In this document: piece after piece, positions 55,936 to 62,595 of the stretch
Numbering within the stretch: the stretch's first letter is position 1
Layout: each line of letters starts with the position of its first letter
Assembly: GCA_017438845.1 (NCBI GenBank)
Contig: JAFRUO010000020.1
Coordinates: 5,349 to 69,348 of the forward strand
Source of the DNA: Clostridia bacterium
GTDB taxonomy: Bacteria > Bacillota > Clostridia > Oscillospirales > Acutalibacteraceae
DNA length: 64,000 bases
Reading direction: 5' to 3'
The notes under the pieces: model-generated
What the model was told of the DNA's origin: nothing
The model's database searches: none
What the model saw: only the letters and a program-made list of their open reading frames with translations
Translations under genes and position numbers: made by a program

Positions 55936-56274
55936 TCATTTAGCATATTTGGATTTATACTCTTCTCCCCAAGTCCACAGGCTGTCAAGAATCGGCTTCA
56001 AGGTTATTCCGAGCTCGGACAATTCATATTCCACTCTCGGCGGTACCTCTGCATAAACAGTACGGATAACCAAGCCGTCCGCTTCCATTTCGCGTAGTTG
56101 AGAAGTCAACACCTTTTGCGATACGGAGCCGACGGAGCGTTTTAGCTCACCGAAGCGCTTTTTGCCGTCAATTAAATCCCTTAAAATTAACACCTTTCAC
56201 TTACTGCCAATCAGTGTTAGGGTTGTTTCAACGGGGCAGGCAGGGAGAGAATTGATGTCTGTCTTTGCTTCCAT
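55936..56274 (-). pseudogene. HxlR (DUF24) family transcriptional regulator interrupted by an in-frame TGA at codon 26
   Basis: ATG 56274 (8 nt after GGAGG) gives MEAKTDINSLPACPVETTLTLIGSK-TGA-KVLILRDLIDGKKRFGELKR... The stop (56199-56197) replaces the Trp of the family motif G-G-K-W-K. The track ORF 55936..56193 is only the downstream piece. Confidence 0.65.
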
Positions 56275-56325: not shown

Positions 56326-56345
56326 TAGTTACTTTTTGGTAACTA
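56326..56345. promoter_or_regulatory. Perfect inverted repeat TAGTTAC-N6-GTAACTA, a candidate HxlR operator
   Basis: A 7+7 bp palindrome in the hxlR 5' leader, within the divergent intergenic region. Confidence 0.4.
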
Positions 56346-56372
56346 CGGCACTTTATTGTGCTTACTTTACAA

Positions 56373-56402
56373 AGTATACCACGAGCGTTACAATTTAGTC
56401 AA
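56373..56402 (-). promoter_or_regulatory. Promoter of the HxlR gene
   Basis: The minus strand reads TTGACT (56402-56397), 18 nt, TGg-TATACT (56378-56373). Confidence 0.5.
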
Positions 56403-56445
56403 GAACAGAGGGAAGCCTCCCATAATGTTCAAAACGCAACGCAAA

Positions 56446-56474
56446 TTGTTTTTGCCGTGCACTTATGCTATAAT
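56446..56474 (+). promoter_or_regulatory. Putative promoter of the macrodomain-SirTM operon
   Basis: TTGTTT (56446-56451), 17 nt, TGc-TATAAT (56469-56474). Confidence 0.45.
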
Positions 56475-56489
56475 AAAGACGGTGATAAA

Positions 56490-57263
56490 ATGACTCAGAG
56501 AGAAAGATTGTTGTTTTTAACAAAGCATCTTATCGGCGAAAGTGACAGGTATAATACGATTGAAATACCTTCATCAGAGAAGGAACTGTTTATGCTTTAC
56601 CGTTCGCTTGTCAATGTGCGTATGCCGAATACGATTGACGAAGAATATTTAAGGGTTGAGGATGAATATCTTGAAAACCTTATTGAGGAAAACGGTATAA
56701 CAAGGGTTGAGGATTTAACCGAATCAGAGCCCGATATTTTTCTTTGGCAAGGTGATATTACCACACTGCGATGTGACGCAATCGTTAACGCCGCAAACTC
56801 ACAAATGCTTGGCTGTTTTGTTCCCTGCCACACCTGTATAGATAACTGTATTCACACATTTTCAGGCATAAGACTGAGGATGAAATGCGACGAGATTATG
56901 AAAAAACAGGGGCACGAAGAGCCAACGGGCACTGCAAAAATCACACCTGCTTACAACCTGCCGTGTAAGTACGTTCTCCATACTGTCGGACCTATTGTAA
57001 ACGGAGAACTTACCGAAAACAATTGTATTCAACTGGAAAGCTGCTATCGTTCCTGCCTTGAACTTGCGGAAAAACACGGAATAAAAAGCATTGCCTTTTG
57101 CTGTATTTCAACGGGCGTTTTCGGATTCCCGCAAAAAGAGGCGGCTGAAATTGCAGTCAAAACCGTAAGACGCTGTAAGTCTGAAACAAAAAGTGGTATA
57201 AAGGTTATTTTCAATGTTTTTAAGGATGAGGACAGAATAATTTATGAAAACATACTCGGATAA
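56490..57263 (+). CDS. Macrodomain protein-ADP-ribose hydrolase (SirTM-associated type)
   Basis: GDITTLRCDAIVNAANSQMLG and CISTGVFGFP macro motifs, with a Cys/His-rich insert CFVPCHTCIDNCIH and an N-terminal helical extension. ATG 56490. Confidence 0.8.
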   Translation: MTQRERLLFLTKHLIGESDRYNTIEIPSSEKELFMLYRSLVNVRMPNTIDEEYLRVEDEYLENLIEENGITRVEDLTESEPDIFLWQGDITTLRCDAIVNAANSQMLGCFVPCHTCIDNCIHTFSGIRLRMKCDEIMKKQGHEEPTGTAKITPAYNLPCKYVLHTVGPIVNGELTENNCIQLESCYRSCLELAEKHGIKSIAFCCISTGVFGFPQKEAAEIAVKTVRRCKSETKSGIKVIFNVFKDEDRIIYENILG

Positions 57264-58089
57264 AATAAAAGAGATTAAAGGGCTGATTGACGGTGCGGAC
57301 GCCGTGTTTATCGGCGCAGGCGCAGGGCTTTCCACCGCCGCAGGATTTATTTATTCCGGCGAGCGTTTTGACAAATATTTTTCCGATTTTAAGGAAAAGT
57401 ACGGCTTCGATAATATGTACTACGGCGGTTTCATTATGGCGAAGTACAGTCCCGAGGAGCTTTGGGCGTTCTGGGCAAGAAACATTTATATCAACCGCTA
57501 TATGCCGATTCCGAAGGATACCTATCAAAAGCTGTTTAAACTTGTAAAGGACAAGGATTATTTTGTCCTTACCACCAATGTCGACCACTGCTTTCAGCGA
57601 GCGGGCTTTGATAAGAAGCGCTTATTCTATACACAGGGCGATTACGGGCTGTTTCAGTGCAGCGAGCCTTGCCATCAGCAGACTTATGACAACGAAGAGA
57701 TTGTCAAAAAGATGTATGAAGCCGAAAAGGATATGAAAATTCCGACGGAGCTTGTTCCGAAGTGTCCCGTCTGCGGCAAGCCGATGACAATGAATCTTCG
57801 CTCGGACGATAAATTCGTTCAGGACGAGGGCTGGTATGTCGCCTACAATCAGTACGAGGATTTTATCCGCCGCCATGAGGGAATGAAAATCGTTTATCTT
57901 GAACTCGGCGTAGGCTACAACACGCCCGTTATCATAAAATATCCGTTTTGGAAATGGACGGCACAGAATGAAAAAGCCACCTATGTTTGCATTAACTTAG
58001 GCGAAGCGGACGCACCGACGGAAATCAAAAAGCAGTCAATCTGCATTGACGGCGATATTAATACCGTGCTTGAGGATTTACAAAAATGA
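57244..58089 (+). CDS. SIR2-family protein, class M (SirTM-like, ADP-ribosyltransferase type)
   Basis: GAGAGLSTAAG NAD-binding loop, TTNVDHCF, QGDYGLFQC, and Zn ribbon C..C...CPVCG. 20-nt overlap with the macro gene. Confidence 0.75.
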   Translation: MKTYSDKIKEIKGLIDGADAVFIGAGAGLSTAAGFIYSGERFDKYFSDFKEKYGFDNMYYGGFIMAKYSPEELWAFWARNIYINRYMPIPKDTYQKLFKLVKDKDYFVLTTNVDHCFQRAGFDKKRLFYTQGDYGLFQCSEPCHQQTYDNEEIVKKMYEAEKDMKIPTELVPKCPVCGKPMTMNLRSDDKFVQDEGWYVAYNQYEDFIRRHEGMKIVYLELGVGYNTPVIIKYPFWKWTAQNEKATYVCINLGEADAPTEIKKQSICIDGDINTVLEDLQK

Positions 58090-58700
58090 ACTATCTTGAA
58101 TACCTCGTAGGCGAAATACACTCAACCATAGCAGCAACCGTGGATGAAAACGGCTTGCCCGTTACCTGCGCCGTGGATATGATGGATGCGGACGAAAACG
58201 GTTTATATTTTCTTACGGCAAAGGGCAAAAACTTTTATAAACGATTGGTGCAAAGCGGTTATCTTTCATTGACGGCACTTAAAGGCGAAAGCACCTTGAC
58301 GAGCGTTGCCGTATCCGTCAGAGGAAAGGTAAAGGAAATCGGCAGCGAAAGACTGCCTGTTCTCCTTGAAAAAAATCCGTATATGCTTGAGATTTATCCG
58401 ACAGAGGAATCAAGACAAGCGCTGACCGTTTTTCAGCTCTACGAGGGCGAAGGCGAATGGTTTGACCTTTCCAAAAAGCCGATTGAAAGAGCAGGCTTTA
58501 CCTTTGGCGGTGCCGAGCAAACACAGGAGGGATACTTCATTAATGACAGCTGTATCGGCTGTCAGACCTGCGGCACCGTCTGCCCTCAAAACTGTATTGA
58601 TTTCAGCAACATTCCCGCCGTTATCAGTCAGAGCAACTGCCTTCACTGCGGGAACTGTCAATCCGTATGTCCTGTCGGTGCGGTTGTGACAAAGAATTGA
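58086..58700 (+). CDS. Pyridoxamine-5'-phosphate-oxidase-like (FMN split-barrel) domain fused to a 2x[4Fe-4S] ferredoxin domain
   Basis: ATGA overlap with the SIR2 gene. The C-terminus has CIGCQTCGTVCP and CLHCGNCQSVCP cluster motifs. The N-terminal ~130 aa resemble a PNPOx-like fold (weaker call). Confidence 0.65.
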   Translation: MNYLEYLVGEIHSTIAATVDENGLPVTCAVDMMDADENGLYFLTAKGKNFYKRLVQSGYLSLTALKGESTLTSVAVSVRGKVKEIGSERLPVLLEKNPYMLEIYPTEESRQALTVFQLYEGEGEWFDLSKKPIERAGFTFGGAEQTQEGYFINDSCIGCQTCGTVCPQNCIDFSNIPAVISQSNCLHCGNCQSVCPVGAVVTKN

Positions 58701-58730
58701 ACCCGACAAATTCTGATTTGTCGAATTGTC

Positions 58731-58765
58731 AGCACCTTGCAAATGCAGGGTGCTTTGTCATTTTT
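58731..58765 (+). terminator. Intrinsic terminator of the macro-SirTM operon
   Basis: AGCACC..GGTGCT stem (extended by TGCA) followed by TTGTCATTTTT. Confidence 0.55.
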
Positions 58766-59027: not shown

Positions 59028-59058
59028 ATTTGCGCTGAAAGTGAGGTTCGCTATAAAA

Positions 59059-59898
59059 ATGGAAAGGTATCACATTGAAAAGAACAGCGTTCAGGAAACG
59101 ATTGTAATTCCGCTTTACGGCAGAAAGCTCTGCACCGAGCTTTTTCCGAATCTGTTTGAGGACAGAAAAGCAGTTGAGCTGATTGACAGAATTGATTATG
59201 ATTTCTCGGAGCTTGAAAAAAGAGCAAAAAGCACAACTTACCGTTTCGGCGCATTGGAGGTAGCGATGCGTGAAAATGACCTTATGATTGAGGCAAAAAA
59301 CTACCTCAAAGAGCATCCTCAGGCGGCAATAGTCAATCTCGGCTGCGGACTAGACCAGACCGCCGAAAACTGCGATAACGGACAGTGCCGTATTTATAAT
59401 ATTGATCTGCCGGATGTTATTGATGTTCGTAATACTCTTCTGCCCGAAAGTGAAAGAGTAAAAAACATAGCCGCCGACCTCAACGACTTTTCGTGGTTTG
59501 ACAAAATCAACGCCGAAAACGGCGTGTGCTTTATAGCGGCGGGCGTTTTCTATTATTTCAGAAAGGACGATATTAAAAAGCTGTTTAACGCTATGGCAAG
59601 GCGCTTCCCGGGCGGTAAGCTTTGCTTTGACGCGGCAAACGAACGAGCCGTAAAAATAATGCTCAAAACCTGGGTTAAGGAGGCAGGCATTACAAGCATA
59701 GCCGACTATTTCAGCGTGAACAGTATTGAAAACGATATTTCGCCGTGGCTTAAAAATGCGGCTGTCAGTTCAAAGGGTTATATGCTCGGCTACAATAATC
59801 TGAAGGACAAATCCGTTCCGTCTCTCTTCAGGCTTATGTCAAAGCTCGGCGACGGCTTTATGAAAATGCAGATAGTAAGAATTGATTTTGAGAGGTAA
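59059..59898 (+). CDS. Class I SAM-dependent methyltransferase (TcmP/LCM-like O-methyltransferase)
   Basis: IPLYGRK near the N-terminus and the NLGCGLD SAM loop. ATG 59059 is preferred to the GTG at 59041. Confidence 0.65.
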   Translation: MERYHIEKNSVQETIVIPLYGRKLCTELFPNLFEDRKAVELIDRIDYDFSELEKRAKSTTYRFGALEVAMRENDLMIEAKNYLKEHPQAAIVNLGCGLDQTAENCDNGQCRIYNIDLPDVIDVRNTLLPESERVKNIAADLNDFSWFDKINAENGVCFIAAGVFYYFRKDDIKKLFNAMARRFPGGKLCFDAANERAVKIMLKTWVKEAGITSIADYFSVNSIENDISPWLKNAAVSSKGYMLGYNNLKDKSVPSLFRLMSKLGDGFMKMQIVRIDFER

Positions 59899-59901
59899 AA
59901 T

Positions 59902-60525
59902 ATGGGAATTCTGAAAAAATATTTTAACCAGACAAGAAAACCCGAGGGCTTTCTCGGCAAGATGATGGTAAACGGAATGAACGGCGGACACGCAAAACTG
60001 GCTGATTGGGGTATGTCTTTTCTTAAAGAAGTTAATCCCGAATCTGCAGTTGACCTCGGCTGCGGCGGAGGAAGGAATGCAGGAGAACTAATGAATAAAT
60101 ATCCTCACTCAAAGGTTACCGCCATCGATTACTCCGAGGTTTCGGTTGAGAAGGCAAGAGAATACAACAAGGACATGATTTCGTCGGGCAGATGCAAGGT
60201 GCTTCAGGGCGATGTTTCAAAGCTGGCGCTTGACAGCGATTCGTTTGAGCTTGCCACGGCATTTGAAACGGTGTATTTCTGGGGCGACCTTGAGAAGTGC
60301 TTTTCCGAGGTCCGCAGAGTGCTTAAGGACGGCGGCACGTTCTTAATCTGCAACGAATCCGACGGAAAGGACGAAACAAGTCTGAAATTTGAAAAGATAA
60401 TTGACGGTATGAAATGCTATACTCCCGAACAGCTGACAGCCGTCCTGAAATCCGTCGGTTTCACTTCAGTTCAGTCTGGGCATCATCCTTCAAAACCGTG
60501 GATTACGGTAACAGCAAAAAAATAA
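59902..60525 (+). CDS. Class I SAM-dependent methyltransferase
   Basis: VDLGCGGGRN motif I and the FD..TAFETVYFW post-I region. Confidence 0.75.
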   Translation: MGILKKYFNQTRKPEGFLGKMMVNGMNGGHAKLADWGMSFLKEVNPESAVDLGCGGGRNAGELMNKYPHSKVTAIDYSEVSVEKAREYNKDMISSGRCKVLQGDVSKLALDSDSFELATAFETVYFWGDLEKCFSEVRRVLKDGGTFLICNESDGKDETSLKFEKIIDGMKCYTPEQLTAVLKSVGFTSVQSGHHPSKPWITVTAKK

Positions 60526-60573
60526 TCACATACTTGCATACAGAATTGTTTACTGAGACAGAAAGGAGCAAAT

Positions 60574-60756
60574 ATGAATCTGCCGAATGATTCTTTTCTT
60601 CTTTTGAGCGCAGTTAATACAAAGCTCAGGGATTATTATTCAAACCTTGATATACTGTGCGACGACCTCGGTGAGAATCGCACGGAGCTTGAAGAAAAAC
60701 CGGCTGACATCGGCTATTACTACGGTGAACAGCTCAATCAGTTTGTTGCGCGTTAA
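60574..60756 (+). CDS. DUF4250 domain protein
   Basis: 60 aa. LLLSAVNTKLRDYYSNLDILCDDL matches my recollection of DUF4250. Confidence 0.6.
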   Translation: MNLPNDSFLLLSAVNTKLRDYYSNLDILCDDLGENRTELEEKPADIGYYYGEQLNQFVAR

Positions 60757-60789
60757 GGGTTAAGTCAAGTTTTTTTGTGAGGTGAAAAT

Positions 60790-61422
60790 ATGAAATATAT
60801 CGGTATGCCTGCCGGCATGTGGCTTCTGTTTAAAAATTCCTTTGAAGACAAACTCGTTACGGTTCTGGGCTTTGATAATGAAACGGCAAAAGCTGTTTCA
60901 CTTAAAGCAAAACCGAAGTATAAGGAAATTATTTCAAAGCTACCGGAATTTGAAAAAAATGACCGCTTCAAGATGAATATCGTCAACTGTGCTATGGTTG
61001 TCGCTTTCTTTTTGCAAATGGATGAAAAGCCAAGCGTGGAACTGCTGACCGATTATTATGCAAAGGCAATGATGACAAAGCCGATGAAATGGTTTTGCAG
61101 AATGGGCGGTAAAAACAAGTTTTCCAAAAAAGATATTGACGGTATGAAAAAGACCGCCGCACTCAAAGCTGCCGACAGAAATCCCTATTCTTGGAATATG
61201 GATTTTTACCCGTATGATGACGGCAGCGGCTACGAAGCAAGGTTTTCAAGCTGCGGAATATGTAAGCTTATGAAGGAGTACGGCATATATGAATTAACGC
61301 CTGCCCTTTGTCATCTTGATTACACCATGACAGATGCGAGCGGCACAGCGGAATTTGTAAGGGATTACACTCTCGCATCGGGCGGACCGTACTGCGATTG
61401 CGGATATAAAAAGAAGGTGTAA
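60790..61422 (+). CDS. L-2-amino-thiazoline-4-carboxylic acid hydrolase-like family protein
   Basis: The C-terminal CHLDYTMTD...RDYTLASGGPYCDCGYKKK is typical of the ATC_hydrolase family. Confidence 0.6.
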   Translation: MKYIGMPAGMWLLFKNSFEDKLVTVLGFDNETAKAVSLKAKPKYKEIISKLPEFEKNDRFKMNIVNCAMVVAFFLQMDEKPSVELLTDYYAKAMMTKPMKWFCRMGGKNKFSKKDIDGMKKTAALKAADRNPYSWNMDFYPYDDGSGYEARFSSCGICKLMKEYGIYELTPALCHLDYTMTDASGTAEFVRDYTLASGGPYCDCGYKKKV

Positions 61423-61424
61423 AA

Positions 61425-62111
61425 ATGAGTAATGACAGAAAAAGCGAAATAAAAAGCGCCTATAAAAGTCTCGGAAAGGTACACGGGTTTTATGACGGTA
61501 TGATGACAGGCTCAAACGCTGTCGGCAGATTTATGGATAAAGCCGTGTGGAATATGACTCATGACGAGGTACTTGAATACCAGTCGGAGGCATTTGCGGC
61601 AATTCCGAAGGATTTTAACGGCAAACTGCTTGAAGTCCCCGTCGGCACGGGAGTTCTTTCAATGCCCGTTTTCAAAACCTTGCCGGATGCTGATATTACC
61701 TGCCTTGACTATTCCGAAAAAATGATGGAATCAGCGCAAAGCCGTGCAAATGAAATGCAAATAAAAAACATCACCTTTTTGCAGGGTGATGTCGGTCAGT
61801 TGCCTTTTGAAAACGAATACTTTGATGCCGTTGTATCTCTTAACGGCTTTCACGCTTTTCCCGATAAGGAAGCTGCATTTTCAGAAACCTGCAGAGTGCT
61901 GAAAAAAGGCGGTATTTTCTGCGGCTGCTTTTATGTTGAAAAAGCAAATGCGCATACCGATAGAATTATTAAAAGCATTTATGTTAAGAAGGGCTTTTTC
62001 ACTCCGCCGTTTGAAACGGTTGACAGTCTCAGAGAAAGGCTTGGAAATACGTACAGCGGCGTAACTGTCGACAATGTCAAGAGCATTGCATATTTCAGGT
62101 GTGTGAAGTGA
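61425..62111 (+). CDS. Class I SAM-dependent methyltransferase (UbiE/Methyltransf_11-like)
   Basis: LEVPVGTGV motif I, LPFENEYFDAV, and GGIF. Confidence 0.75.
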   Translation: MSNDRKSEIKSAYKSLGKVHGFYDGMMTGSNAVGRFMDKAVWNMTHDEVLEYQSEAFAAIPKDFNGKLLEVPVGTGVLSMPVFKTLPDADITCLDYSEKMMESAQSRANEMQIKNITFLQGDVGQLPFENEYFDAVVSLNGFHAFPDKEAAFSETCRVLKKGGIFCGCFYVEKANAHTDRIIKSIYVKKGFFTPPFETVDSLRERLGNTYSGVTVDNVKSIAYFRCVK

Positions 62112-62112
62112 T

Positions 62113-62595
62113 ATGAAGGATAAACTTCCTGTTTACGGTGTCGGTCCGATTTACGGCATCGGCATCTCGGCAATAAGCGTTTTAATGATAATTCTCGCAA
62201 AAACACTTTTTAAATCGGGCAGTATTGCAGGGCTTAAAATCCCGTTTCTCATACTCGGAATAATCTTTATTCTCAGCGGTGTCGCCGTGTGGATTTCTGC
62301 AGTAATAATCGCAAAAATCGATGACGGTATCAAATCGAATACCCTTGTAACCCACGGCATTTATGCGTATTGCCGCAATCCGATTTACACGGCGGTTACG
62401 TTCGTGAATGTCGGAGCATTGCTTATTGCGAATAATCTATGGCTTCTTATTTTGCCGTTTGGTTATTGGGTGTTTCTGACGGTGCTGATGAAGCACACCG
62501 AGGAGAAATGGCTTCTCGATATGTTTGGTCGGCAGTACACGGATTACTGCAAAACCGTCAACCGCTGCATCCCGTGGAAGAGTAAGAAGAGATAA
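62113..62595 (+). CDS. Membrane methyltransferase of the isoprenylcysteine carboxyl / phospholipid methyltransferase (ICMT/PEMT) family
   Basis: 4-5 TM protein. GIYAYCRNPIY....... and EEKWL..FG..Y..Y C-terminal motifs. Confidence 0.7.
   Translation: MKDKLPVYGVGPIYGIGISAISVLMIILAKTLFKSGSIAGLKIPFLILGIIFILSGVAVWISAVIIAKIDDGIKSNTLVTHGIYAYCRNPIYTAVTFVNVGALLIANNLWLLILPFGYWVFLTVLMKHTEEKWLLDMFGRQYTDYCKTVNRCIPWKSKKR

Follow-up and report, generated by a model that had tools for sequence, protein, structure and literature searches.

The 64-kb window (the whole stretch of 64,000 nucleotides of Clostridia DNA that was analysed) contains three overlapping open reading frames on the forward strand, encoding proteins of 257, 281, and 204 amino acids (Table 1). 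The first two genes code for a Zn-dependent macrodomain (Zn-Macro) and a class-M sirtuin (SirTM), and the third one for a fusion of a PNPOx-like domain with a ferredoxin domain, hereafter referred to as PNPOx-Fd. Direct reading of the junctions showed that the ATG of the SirTM gene (57244) lies upstream of the macrodomain TAA (57261-57263), giving a 20-nt overlap, and that the SirTM and PNPOx-Fd genes share the 4-nt sequence ATGA (58086-58089). GAGGA-like ribosome-binding sites were found upstream of the SirTM and PNPOx-Fd starts. Thus, both overlaps and the translational coupling of the third gene to SirTM, proposed in an earlier note made from this sequence alone, agree with the ORF coordinates and junctions. 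By sequence, the three closely coupled genes form a single transcription unit, which ends in a terminator-like hairpin 3' of the third gene. DNA homology with two related loci (L001 and L003) stops at 58724. The flanking genes in the window encode XRE, DUF3267, LCM and other methyltransferases, and ATC_hydrolase (Pfam), and the NmrA-like gene of the nearest relatives is missing. The module is a discrete cassette, the flanks of which differ among close relatives.

Table 1. Coordinates of the genes and putative regulatory elements of the SirTM locus
Feature	Position	Strand	Basis
Interrupted gene of a winged-helix regulator (HxlR/DUF24 type), oriented divergently to the operon	55936..56274	-	Pfam HxlR, 101.9 bits on an 85-aa C-terminal ORF
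Terminator-like hairpin and T-run after the hxlR stop codon	55886..55912	-	Consensus scan
Candidate HxlR operator in the hxlR-operon intergenic region: perfect inverted repeat, TAGTTAC-N6-GTAACTA	56326..56345	.	Function putative
Sigma-70-like promoter candidate TTTACA-17-TACAAT, 5' of the macrodomain gene	56366..56394	+	Consensus scan, 10/12 matches; pattern match only
Zn-dependent MacroD-type macrodomain (Zn-Macro), predicted protein-ADP-ribose hydrolase, eraser	56490..57263	+	Pfam, NCBIfam, PDB, motifs
Class-M sirtuin (SirTM), predicted NAD+-dependent protein ADP-ribosyltransferase, writer	57244..58089	+	PDB matches, catalytic motifs
PNPOx-like split-barrel domain (1-140) fused to 2x[4Fe-4S] ferredoxin domain (150-204), PNPOx-Fd	58086..58700	+	Pfam, PDB, AF2/Foldseek, linkage census
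Intrinsic-terminator-like hairpin (10-bp stem, 6 GC) and T-run, operon end	58731..58764	+	Consensus scan

The product of the first gene matched the Pfam family Macro (137.6 bits) and the NCBIfam model NF003163 'protein-ADP-ribose hydrolase' (361.5 bits with a cut-off of 272, residues 2-256 covered). The closest solved macrodomain is MorMacro (PDB 8RSI, E=8.7e-81), followed by SauMacro (5KIV/8RSL, 1e-74). The NAAN motif occupies residues 100-103, and the Gly-rich catalytic loop is replaced by CFVPCHTC at 109-116 (C109-x4-H114-x-C116), which corresponds to the Zn-loop Cx(4)HxC defining Zn-Macro proteins (PMC11490716). The Cys/His-rich insert mentioned in the earlier note is this Zn-loop. Residues 3-256 align end to end with residues 5-259 of 8RSI, indicating that the N-terminal three-helix-bundle extension is probably present as well.

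The best solved relative of the second protein is the Streptococcus pyogenes SirTM (SpySirTM, 5A3A; E=3.5e-65, about 39% identity), followed by the fungal Mfs1 (8RSN, 2e-20), and no further sirtuin structures in PDB matched it at E<0.01. The GAGAG motif was found at 24-28 and QGDYG at 131-135. Q131-G132 in TQGDYG aligns with IQGEYG of SpySirTM (Gln137 in that protein), and the replacement of the catalytic HG by QG is the defining feature of class-M sirtuins (PMC4518038). Along with Q131, the protein contains the catalytic residues N112 and R186 and the motif GVGYNTP (222-228), all of them invariant in alignment A1, and its Zn-binding small domain carries four cysteines (C139, C143, C174, and C177). 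Weak matches to Pfam SIR2 (22.2 bits) and to the CobB models of NCBIfam (18-30 bits) could be taken to mean that an ordinary CobB-like deacylase is encoded beside an unrelated macrodomain and a ferredoxin gene. However, all these scores are under the cut-offs (above 220 for CobB), Gln131 stands in place of the catalytic His, and a Zn-macro gene, overlapping by 20 nt in the window, adjoins SirTM in 73 of 80 related loci; the sequence evidence already refutes this identity, and we give it practically no credence. The SirTM/Zn-macro writer-eraser pair recognized in the earlier note therefore stands. Both proteins carry all the catalytic motifs, and as a class-M sirtuin the second one is predicted to be a robust protein ADP-ribosyltransferase devoid of deacylase activity.

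The N-terminal part of the third protein was recognized by Pfam PNPOx_N just at the threshold (28.3 bits with a cut-off of 28.1), while PDB entry 2HHZ matched across residues 9-130 (E=2e-13). The AF2 model (pLDDT 86.6) had 2HHZ, NimA/C, GSP26-like proteins, PNPOx (PdxH), and PhzG as the top Foldseek matches, with a probability of 1.0 for 2HHZ, NimA/C, GSP26, and PdxH, consistent with the split beta-barrel PNPOx fold. From the fold we infer that PNPOx-Fd may bind a flavin. The F-x-T-A-x-G-K motif at 42-48 is invariant, but many members have Cys or Ala in place of the Arg that usually contacts the FMN phosphate. Two CxxCxxCxxxCP motifs (residues 156-167 and 185-196) are present in the C-terminal part, which matched Fer4 families of Pfam (up to 4e-11). 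NCBIfam contained no model naming this family and gave only generic ferredoxin matches. Among 150 representatives surveyed for Rosetta-stone fusions, single examples of an NmrA-like/PNPOx-Fd protein (P0381) and of PNPOx joined to one Fer4 motif and NUDIX (P0429, which may be an assembly artefact) were found. In a PNPOx-macro chimera (P0397), both the ferredoxin domain and the N-terminus of the macro part are missing; this protein resembles an artefact of deletion or assembly and was not counted as evidence.

The regulator gene is indeed divergent from the operon and of the HxlR type, as the earlier note had it, but it is not intact. An in-frame TGA at 56197-56199 (codon 26) breaks the reading frame (translation MEAKTDINSLPACPVETTLTLIGSK*KVLILRDL), and reinitiation after it would drop the N-terminus with Cys13. 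In four close relatives (L001, L002, L003, and L013), this codon is TGG; in the window, 14 of the 45 long ORFs have TGA as their ordinary stop codon. Since the TGA replaces a conserved Trp, the window copy is a probable pseudogene or sequencing error. The exact inverted repeat of Table 1 adjoins hxlR in 8 related loci, and GTTAC/GTAAC half-sites recur next to hxlR in more distant ones. In other lineages, the place of HxlR is taken by an Rrf2 regulator, the best NCBIfam match of which was the S. aureus HypR model (57.8 bits with a cut-off of 180). Thiol-switch regulators of these types are represented by YodB, HypR, and CatR of B. subtilis (DUF24/HxlR) and by the Rrf2-type HypR of S. aureus. 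The regulator of this locus resembles the DUF24/HxlR ones in being a small winged-helix protein with a conserved N-terminal Cys (ACPVE here), encoded divergently from flavin/nitroreductase-type detoxification genes. It differs from them in that a regulon consisting of an ADP-ribosylation pair and PNPOx-Fd has not been described and in that the gene is truncated in the window.

The extended SirTM operon of Staphylococcus and Streptococcus comprises GcvH-L and Zn-Macro as well as SirTM and LplA2, plus OYE/LLM (Rack et al. 2015; Acosta et al. 2025; PMC4518038, PMC12440151). The locus under study shares with it a homologous writer with the QG motif, a homologous Zn-macro eraser bearing both the N-terminal extension and the Cx4HxC loop, overlapping genes, association with flavin oxidoreductases, and an oxidative-stress theme. 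Unlike that operon, it lacks GcvH-L, LplA2, and OYE/LLM and has instead an HxlR regulator and a protein in which PNPOx-like and 2x[4Fe-4S] parts are fused, and its host belongs to an anaerobic rumen/gut lineage of Clostridia. The lack of GcvH-L and LplA2, pointed out in the earlier note, holds for the 64-kb window: in phmmer searches of its six-frame translation and of 160 related loci, E. coli GcvH and Aerococcus GcvH-L gave no match at E≤1, and E. coli LplA and Aerococcus LplA2 gave no match either, while the positive controls reached 1.4e-11 (E. coli GcvH against Aerococcus GcvH-L) and 2.3e-35 (LplA). No OYE/LLM flavin oxidoreductase genes were present among the flanking genes of the window.

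This lack alone does not make the locus an uncharacterized variant, as the earlier note suggested, since independent or minimal SirTM-macro operons are already known in Clostridia, Lachnospiraceae, Treponema, and Methanobrevibacter; such lone pairs were described in 2015 and 2024, and their targets were called elusive (PMC4518038, PMC11490716). The locus belongs to this class of pairs without GcvH-L and LplA2 (Rack et al. 2015; Ariza et al. 2024). Its macrodomain is closest to MorMacro of Methanobrevibacter oralis, in which HxlR is divergent from macro-SirTM and nothing more is found. MorMacro, itself encoded in a minimal operon, does not de-modify GcvH-L (PMC11490716), and therefore a different substrate must exist. 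Unlike the minimal operons as published, consisting of the pair only, the window and 44 of 80 related loci have a coupled PNPOx-Fd. Hydrogeniiclostridium mannosilyticum, listed simply as 'operon' in Table S3 of Ariza et al. (PMC11490716), is among the related species whose operon includes PNPOx-Fd.

SirTM relatives were found in at least 567 species. Of 80 genome loci, each representing a species and having a SirTM with 61-96% identity to that of the window, Zn-macro was present in 73, PNPOx-Fd (within 3.5 kb) in 44, HxlR in 38-40, and Rrf2 in 21; the HxlR-type regulator was divergent in about half of the loci. The commonest gene order is PNPOx-Fd-macro-SirTM, the clade of the window has macro-SirTM-PNPOx-Fd, and Faecalibacillus has PNPOx-Fd-SirTM-macro. 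The median distance from PNPOx-Fd to macro is 3 nt (≤20 nt in 22 of 25) and from SirTM to PNPOx-Fd -4 nt (≤20 nt in 8 of 9). In Collinsella, PNPOx-Fd is divergent and lies within an ACGX-peptide/radical-SAM operon rather than with macro-SirTM. The macro gene is lost in two loci (L003 and L004) that keep SirTM-PNPOx-Fd, and one locus (L048) contains a second hxlR-PNPOx-Fd pair without SirTM. In Enterococcus casseliflavus, a 149-aa PNPOx protein, 52% identical to the N-domain of the window protein and devoid of the ferredoxin domain, is encoded directly 3' of SirTM, and a NUDIX gene comes next. Unbiased clustering of neighbours revealed only redox-type companions: NmrA-like (22 loci), nitroreductase (11), small PNPOx (8), DUF1848 (4), and rSAM/ACGX.

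The census was also taken in reverse, from 80 metagenome loci whose PNPOx-Fd has 62-89% identity to the window protein; macro and/or SirTM adjoined it in 71, and only three of the nine exceptions had ample flanks on both sides. The linkage of the third gene, on the conservation of which the earlier note had made its reading depend, is therefore strong in both directions, and no other neighbour is comparable. It extends across Clostridia, Erysipelotrichia, and Coriobacteriia, including Ruminococcus, Oscillospiraceae, Lachnospiraceae, Faecalibacillus, and Collinsella; the cultured carriers of the module are R. flavefaciens FD-1, C. aerofaciens ATCC 25986, H. mannosilyticum, and F. intestinalis. 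Judging by 71 of 80 against 44 of 80, this PNPOx-Fd subfamily almost never occurs without the writer-eraser pair, while the pair often occurs without PNPOx-Fd. Such an asymmetry, as with GcvH-L, is what one would predict for a component dedicated to the pair, either an accessory or a target. On the other hand, PNPOx-Fd is absent within 3.5 kb of SirTM in 36 of 80 loci, including that of M. oralis, the source of MorMacro. Unless these genomes carry its gene at another place, PNPOx-Fd therefore cannot serve as the target in all such systems. Pairwise identities of SirTM and PNPOx-Fd were correlated (r = 0.75, compared with 0.79 for SirTM and macro; Mantel p = 0.001), but the correlation was positive for all partners and, without a housekeeping-gene control, is weak support that may reflect shared phylogeny alone.

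Taken together, these data suggest that the locus is probably a redox-stress module, in which reversible ADP-ribosylation by a lone-type SirTM/Zn-macro operon acts with, and possibly on, a dedicated PNPOx-Fd. More tentatively, PNPOx-Fd may be the dedicated substrate of lone-type SirTMs, a flavin/FeS electron-transfer enzyme that anaerobes of the gut and rumen would switch or shield by macrodomain-reversible ADP-ribosylation when stressed by oxidants or electrophiles. We infer this role of a target from gene context, which cannot separate it from co-regulation, in which case PNPOx-Fd would be just one detoxifying oxidoreductase of an HxlR/Rrf2 stress regulon that includes SirTM and macro, and the gene of the real target, such as an enzyme of central metabolism or a carrier protein (lipoyl or other), would lie in another part of the genome. 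The changing set of redox genes at SirTM loci, the 45% of loci without a nearby PNPOx-Fd (with only HxlR and macro-SirTM in M. oralis), the divergent gene of Collinsella, and the second hxlR-PNPOx-Fd pair without SirTM are consistent with co-regulation. We nevertheless consider it rather unlikely, given that the PNPOx-Fd subfamily adjoins the pair in almost all loci of the reverse census (71 of 80), its junctions are gaps of 3-4 nt or overlaps, SirTM-PNPOx-Fd is kept where the macro gene is lost, and no other neighbour has a comparable two-way linkage.

A role in metabolite handling is improbable; here the PNPOx-like protein would not be a protein substrate but would work on a small molecule that the cycle makes or uses up (NAD+/nicotinamide/ADP-ribose or a flavin nucleotide). 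Small heterocycles are common substrates of PNPOx-fold enzymes such as PdxH, PhzG, and Nim, the Enterococcus operon has a NUDIX hydrolase gene next after PNPOx, and in P0429 PNPOx is joined to NUDIX and one Fer4 motif; however, this possible artefact is the sole fusion example, NUDIX is missing from the window and most loci, and we know of no PNPOx-fold enzyme acting on ADP-ribose or nicotinamide. Still less can be said for an anti-phage or NAD-depletion system, the alternative offered in the earlier note, which we regard as very improbable. Defence systems with SIR2 and macro domains are known, the cassette is discrete with variable flanks, and an XRE-type HTH gene lies upstream. Nevertheless, PADLOC models matched neither the macrodomain nor SirTM and gave only a marginal ferredoxin-motif match of the third protein to BrxP (E=0.006, 12.8 bits). 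The sirtuin has the QG catalytic signature and matches SirTM structures only, its partner is the SirTM-specific Zn-macro, and the neighbours are redox genes and thiol-switch regulators rather than defence genes. The search of a phage collection yielded only 4 records, weak or unannotated, the full-length ones being unannotated Staphylococcus records, and plasmid matches fell mainly on large secondary replicons, where the redox context was the same.

Under the preferred reading of a redox-stress module with PNPOx-Fd as partner, oxidants or electrophiles would activate the operon by modifying HxlR at its N-terminal Cys, an Rrf2 regulator playing this part in other lineages. PNPOx-Fd could pass low-potential electrons via its FeS clusters to the flavin site, where an oxidant or electrophile would be reduced. 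Using NAD+, SirTM would mono-ADP-ribosylate an acidic residue on PNPOx-Fd or a PNPOx-Fd-bound protein, gating or protecting it, and the Zn-macrodomain would take the ADP-ribose mark off. PNPOx-Fd would functionally replace the dedicated GcvH-L carrier, with OYE/LLM flavoenzymes, of the Staphylococcus/Streptococcus operon. Reversible mono-ADP-ribosylation controls the Fe protein of nitrogenase in the DraT/DraG system, through an arginine linkage. If PNPOx-Fd is the target, the likeness, as an analogy of function only, is that a dedicated writer-eraser pair switches an FeS electron-transfer protein according to the cellular state. The enzymes are unrelated (ART-fold DraT and ARH-fold DraG versus a sirtuin and a macrodomain), and the linkage in SirTM operons is probably to Asp/Glu rather than to arginine.

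It has been stated (PMC11490716) that, except for the extended operon, neither the role nor the targets of SirTM/Zn-macro pairs are known. A role of PNPOx-Fd as partner of the pair looks undescribed: among the openly accessible papers searched, none was found that links SirTM with pyridoxamine, ferredoxin, HxlR, or ACGX. According to the census, the pair has company in abundant anaerobes of the gut and rumen: in several dozen species at the least, it is operonic with an otherwise unnamed flavin/FeS fusion, under a thiol-switch-type regulator. PNPOx-Fd is thus a concrete candidate for the target of 'lone' SirTM systems, and the question can be reduced to three purified proteins. If confirmed, it would be the second SirTM substrate after GcvH-L, the only one known, and the module would represent a sirtuin-based functional counterpart of DraT/DraG. 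In strict anaerobes, it may link NAD+-dependent signalling to low-potential electron flow or oxygen tolerance.

The three genes form a real, well-formed operon: one for a zinc-dependent macrodomain (Zn-macro), one for a class-M sirtuin (SirTM), and one for a protein in which a PNPOx-like domain is fused to a 2x[4Fe-4S] ferredoxin domain (PNPOx-Fd). Their called reading frames coincide exactly with those of the earlier note and overlap as it had claimed, since the SirTM start lies 20 nt ahead of the macrodomain stop and the sequence ATGA combines the PNPOx-Fd start with the SirTM stop. Each of the two internal starts has a GAGGA-type ribosome-binding site ahead of it.

Window coordinates of the operon and associated features
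Feature	Position	Strand	Remark
Zn-macro gene	56490-57263	+	ORF call
SirTM gene	57244-58089	+	ORF call
PNPOx-Fd gene	58086-58700	+	ORF call
Promoter-like site	56366-56394		
Terminator-like hairpin	58731-58764		3' of the PNPOx-Fd gene
Perfect inverted repeat TAGTTAC-N6-GTAACTA	56326-56345		in the hxlR-operon intergenic region
TGG to TGA change	56197-56199	-	hxlR codon 26
Site of the missing NmrA-like gene	56405-56458		L001:2964-3686 in the relative L001
Ends of DNA homology with L001/L013	55935; 58724		
Downstream gene run	59041-62595	+	same strand as the operon

Judging from its sequence, the second gene encodes a class-M sirtuin: searched against the whole PDB, its product matched only SpySirTM (5A3A, 3.5e-65) and a fungal macro-SirTM fusion (8RSN, 2e-20), and its scores against the Pfam SIR2 and CobB NCBIfam models were under the cut-offs. 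It contains Q131-G132 where the catalytic HG would be, the class motif GVGYNTP and four zinc cysteines, while N112 and R186 are the equivalents of the mutation-tested SpySirTM residues Asn118 and Arg192 (PMC4518038). The first gene product is assigned to the zinc-dependent MacroD-type macrodomains, with 361.5 bits against the NCBIfam model NF003163 "protein-ADP-ribose hydrolase" (cut-off 272) and with MorMacro of Methanobrevibacter oralis (8RSI, 8.7e-81) and SauMacro (5KIV/8RSL, ~1e-74) as the nearest solved structures. It carries the NAAN motif (residues 100-103) and a zinc loop, C109-x4-H114-x-C116, that fits the Zn-macro-defining motif Cx(4)HxC (PMC11490716). Writer and eraser are complete and apparently functional, and the pair adds a new member to an already known class.

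The extended operon of Staphylococcus and Streptococcus additionally encodes GcvH-L and LplA2, and in that system ADP-ribosylation serves to protect and gate the lipoyl group (PMC12440151). Queries with E. coli GcvH and LplA, and with GcvH-L and LplA2 from the bona fide extended operon of Aerococcus tenax, gave no matches at E<=1 in 160 related loci or in the window translated in all six frames. Because the E. coli queries do recover the Aerococcus proteins (1.4e-11 for GcvH and 2.3e-35 for LplA), the absence reported in the earlier note is real for the window. Its novelty did not hold, since SirTM/macro pairs were already described as "independent operons" in Clostridiaceae, Lachnospiraceae, Spirochaetaceae, and others (Rack et al. 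2015, PMC4518038), and Ariza et al. 2024 (PMC11490716), who also ran AlphaFold complex predictions for GcvH-L, told apart "extended operon", "operon", and "fusion" contexts, with Hydrogeniiclostridium mannosilyticum and Methanobrevibacter sp. YE315 entered as plain "operon" in their Table S3. In the literature searched, no paper was found that ties SirTM to a PNPOx, ferredoxin, or HxlR partner.

The first part of the third gene product is a PNPOx-like split-barrel, with a Pfam PNPOx_N score just at the threshold and a PDB match to 2HHZ at 2e-13. Top Foldseek matches of its AF2 model (pLDDT 86.6) were 2HHZ, NimA/C, GSP26-like proteins, PdxH, and PhzG. The C-terminal 2x[4Fe-4S] ferredoxin domain has two CxxCxxCxxxCP motifs. 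NCBIfam has no model named for this fusion family, and its members appear in public records as "4Fe-4S binding protein". Two family representatives, a single NmrA-like/PNPOx-Fd fusion (P0381) and a single PNPOx/Fer4/NUDIX fusion (P0429), hint that NAD(P)H donates the electrons and that the family is linked to ADP-ribose clean-up. A third representative, the PNPOx-macro chimera P0397, is truncated and probably an artefact.

To describe the neighbourhood, one genome per GTDB species was scanned, giving at least 567 SirTM relatives, and the best 80 of them (61-96% identity) were analyzed with 8-kb flanks; neighbours were assigned by phmmer mapping and unbiased clustering of adjacent ORFs. SirTM was accompanied by Zn-macro in 73 of the 80 loci and by PNPOx-Fd within 3.5 kb in 44, followed by HxlR (38-40), an NmrA-like NAD(P)-binding protein (22), Rrf2 (21), nitroreductase (11), and a small PNPOx-like protein (8); a GcvH/LplA-like cluster occurred in none. 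The genes are tightly packed, with median gaps of 3 nt from PNPOx-Fd to macro and -4 nt from SirTM to PNPOx-Fd. Their order varies: PNPOx-Fd-macro-SirTM is the commonest, macro-SirTM-PNPOx-Fd is present in the window's clade, PNPOx-Fd-SirTM-macro is found in Faecalibacillus, and in Collinsella macro-SirTM and PNPOx-Fd are divergent. The H. mannosilyticum locus reads hxlR / NmrA-PNPOx-Fd-macro-SirTM.

In the reverse census of 80 metagenome loci with PNPOx-Fd 62-89% identical to that of the window, macro and/or SirTM adjoined it in 71, and most of the nine exceptions lay at contig ends, only three having ample flank on both sides. The linkage of the third gene to the pair is thus conserved in other genomes. 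SirTM-PNPOx-Fd persists in two close relatives (L003 and L004) from which the macrodomain gene has been lost. In Enterococcus casseliflavus, a gene for a 149-aa PNPOx protein, 52% identical to the N-domain of the window protein and without the ferredoxin domain, lies directly 3' of SirTM and is followed by a NUDIX hydrolase gene. More distant small PNPOx genes adjoin the pair in Treponema saccharophilum and in Methanobrevibacter sp. YE315 (PNPOx / HxlR-macro-SirTM), and M. oralis has the pair with a divergent HxlR only. The PNPOx-Fd subfamily almost never occurs without the pair, whereas the pair often occurs without PNPOx-Fd; this asymmetry recalls how GcvH-L, as dedicated carrier, is placed in the extended operon.

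The nearest relatives, L001 and L013, share 88-89% nucleotide identity with the window, which differs from them twice, by a nonsense codon in hxlR and by lacking ~720 bp with the NmrA-like gene that they hold between hxlR and the macrodomain gene. DNA homology extends from precisely the hxlR stop codon to just past the PNPOx-Fd stop, short of the terminator hairpin, and therefore hxlR-to-PNPOx-Fd behaves as a discrete cassette in differing surroundings. The GC content of the final 10 kb of the window is 0.39-0.45 versus 0.45-0.50 elsewhere. Methyltransferases make up most of the gene run downstream of the operon (one LCM-type, two class-I SAM, and one PEMT/ICMT-like membrane enzyme), along with an ATC_hydrolase-family protein. 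In four related loci (L002, L005, L006, and L048) an L-lactate dehydrogenase gene is inserted between macro and SirTM.

The divergent HxlR gene proposed in the earlier note is real (Pfam HxlR, 101.9 bits), but its frame is broken, reading MEAKTDINSLPACPVETTLTLIGSK*KVLILRDL. Four close relatives keep Trp (TGG) at this codon, and 14 of the window's 45 long ORFs end normally in TGA; therefore hxlR is either truncated here or affected by an assembly error. HxlR is probably inactive in this genome, unless the codon reflects a sequencing error, and its inactivity would mean loss of stress control over the operon, which would become constitutive if HxlR represses and non-inducible if it activates. 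The exact inverted repeat also adjoins hxlR in eight related loci, with GTTAC/GTAAC half-sites in more distant ones, and is a plausible HxlR operator. As is typical of the DUF24/HxlR thiol-switch family, YodB and HypR among them, the protein has retained an N-terminal Cys (ACPVE). Where HxlR is missing, an Rrf2 regulator is often present, its best NCBIfam match being the redox-sensing HypR model at 57.8 bits, far under the cut-off of 180. Taking both families together, 61 of the 80 loci have such a regulator.

Another neighbour, in 20 of the 80 SirTM loci, was the ACGX system, in which acgA, encoding an ACGX-repeat peptide, and a radical SAM/SPASM maturase (TIGR04340, 533 bits) lie within or beside the SirTM module. 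These genes usually adjoin a nitroreductase and a second PNPOx-Fd subfamily (31-34% identical). They were found in Collinsella (L050, L061, L062, L064, L069, L072, L075, L078, and L079), in other loci (L020, L021, L024, L029, L032, L044, L046, L063, and L080), and in Roseburia sp. 831b (L161, 1689-2972), and are absent within the window; no literature on this peptide system was found. The modified, Cys-rich peptide might serve as carrier or target instead. In the archaeon Methanobrevibacter sp. YE315 (L167, 5005-12539) and the spirochaete T. saccharophilum (L162, 3252-10048) the pair lies amid anaerobe oxygen-defence genes for flavodiiron protein, rubrerythrin/ferritin-like protein, aldo-keto reductase, flavodoxin, and C_GCAxxG_C_C protein, which reinforces the oxidative-stress context beyond Firmicutes.

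The module may act as a redox/electrophile-stress unit, in which the FeS clusters of PNPOx-Fd would supply low-potential electrons to a flavin site for the reduction of an oxidant. SirTM would ADP-ribosylate PNPOx-Fd or a protein complexed with it, probably at an acidic residue, because Zn-macros cleave Asp/Glu-ADPr, and the Zn-macrodomain would reverse the mark. We are fairly confident that PNPOx-Fd functions as a dedicated partner of the pair; that it is the direct SirTM substrate is a more doubtful, tentative proposal. The main rival reading is co-regulation alone: the genes would share an HxlR/Rrf2 stress regulon, and the target of SirTM would lie elsewhere. Handling of a metabolite by PNPOx-Fd, to which the NUDIX adjacency and the one PNPOx-NUDIX fusion point, is a minority possibility. 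The defence role raised as an alternative in the earlier note was unsupported by a PADLOC search. The conserved three-gene architecture, four-part with HxlR, appears to represent a previously undescribed SirTM-system variant, and it gives a specific candidate for an openly acknowledged unknown.
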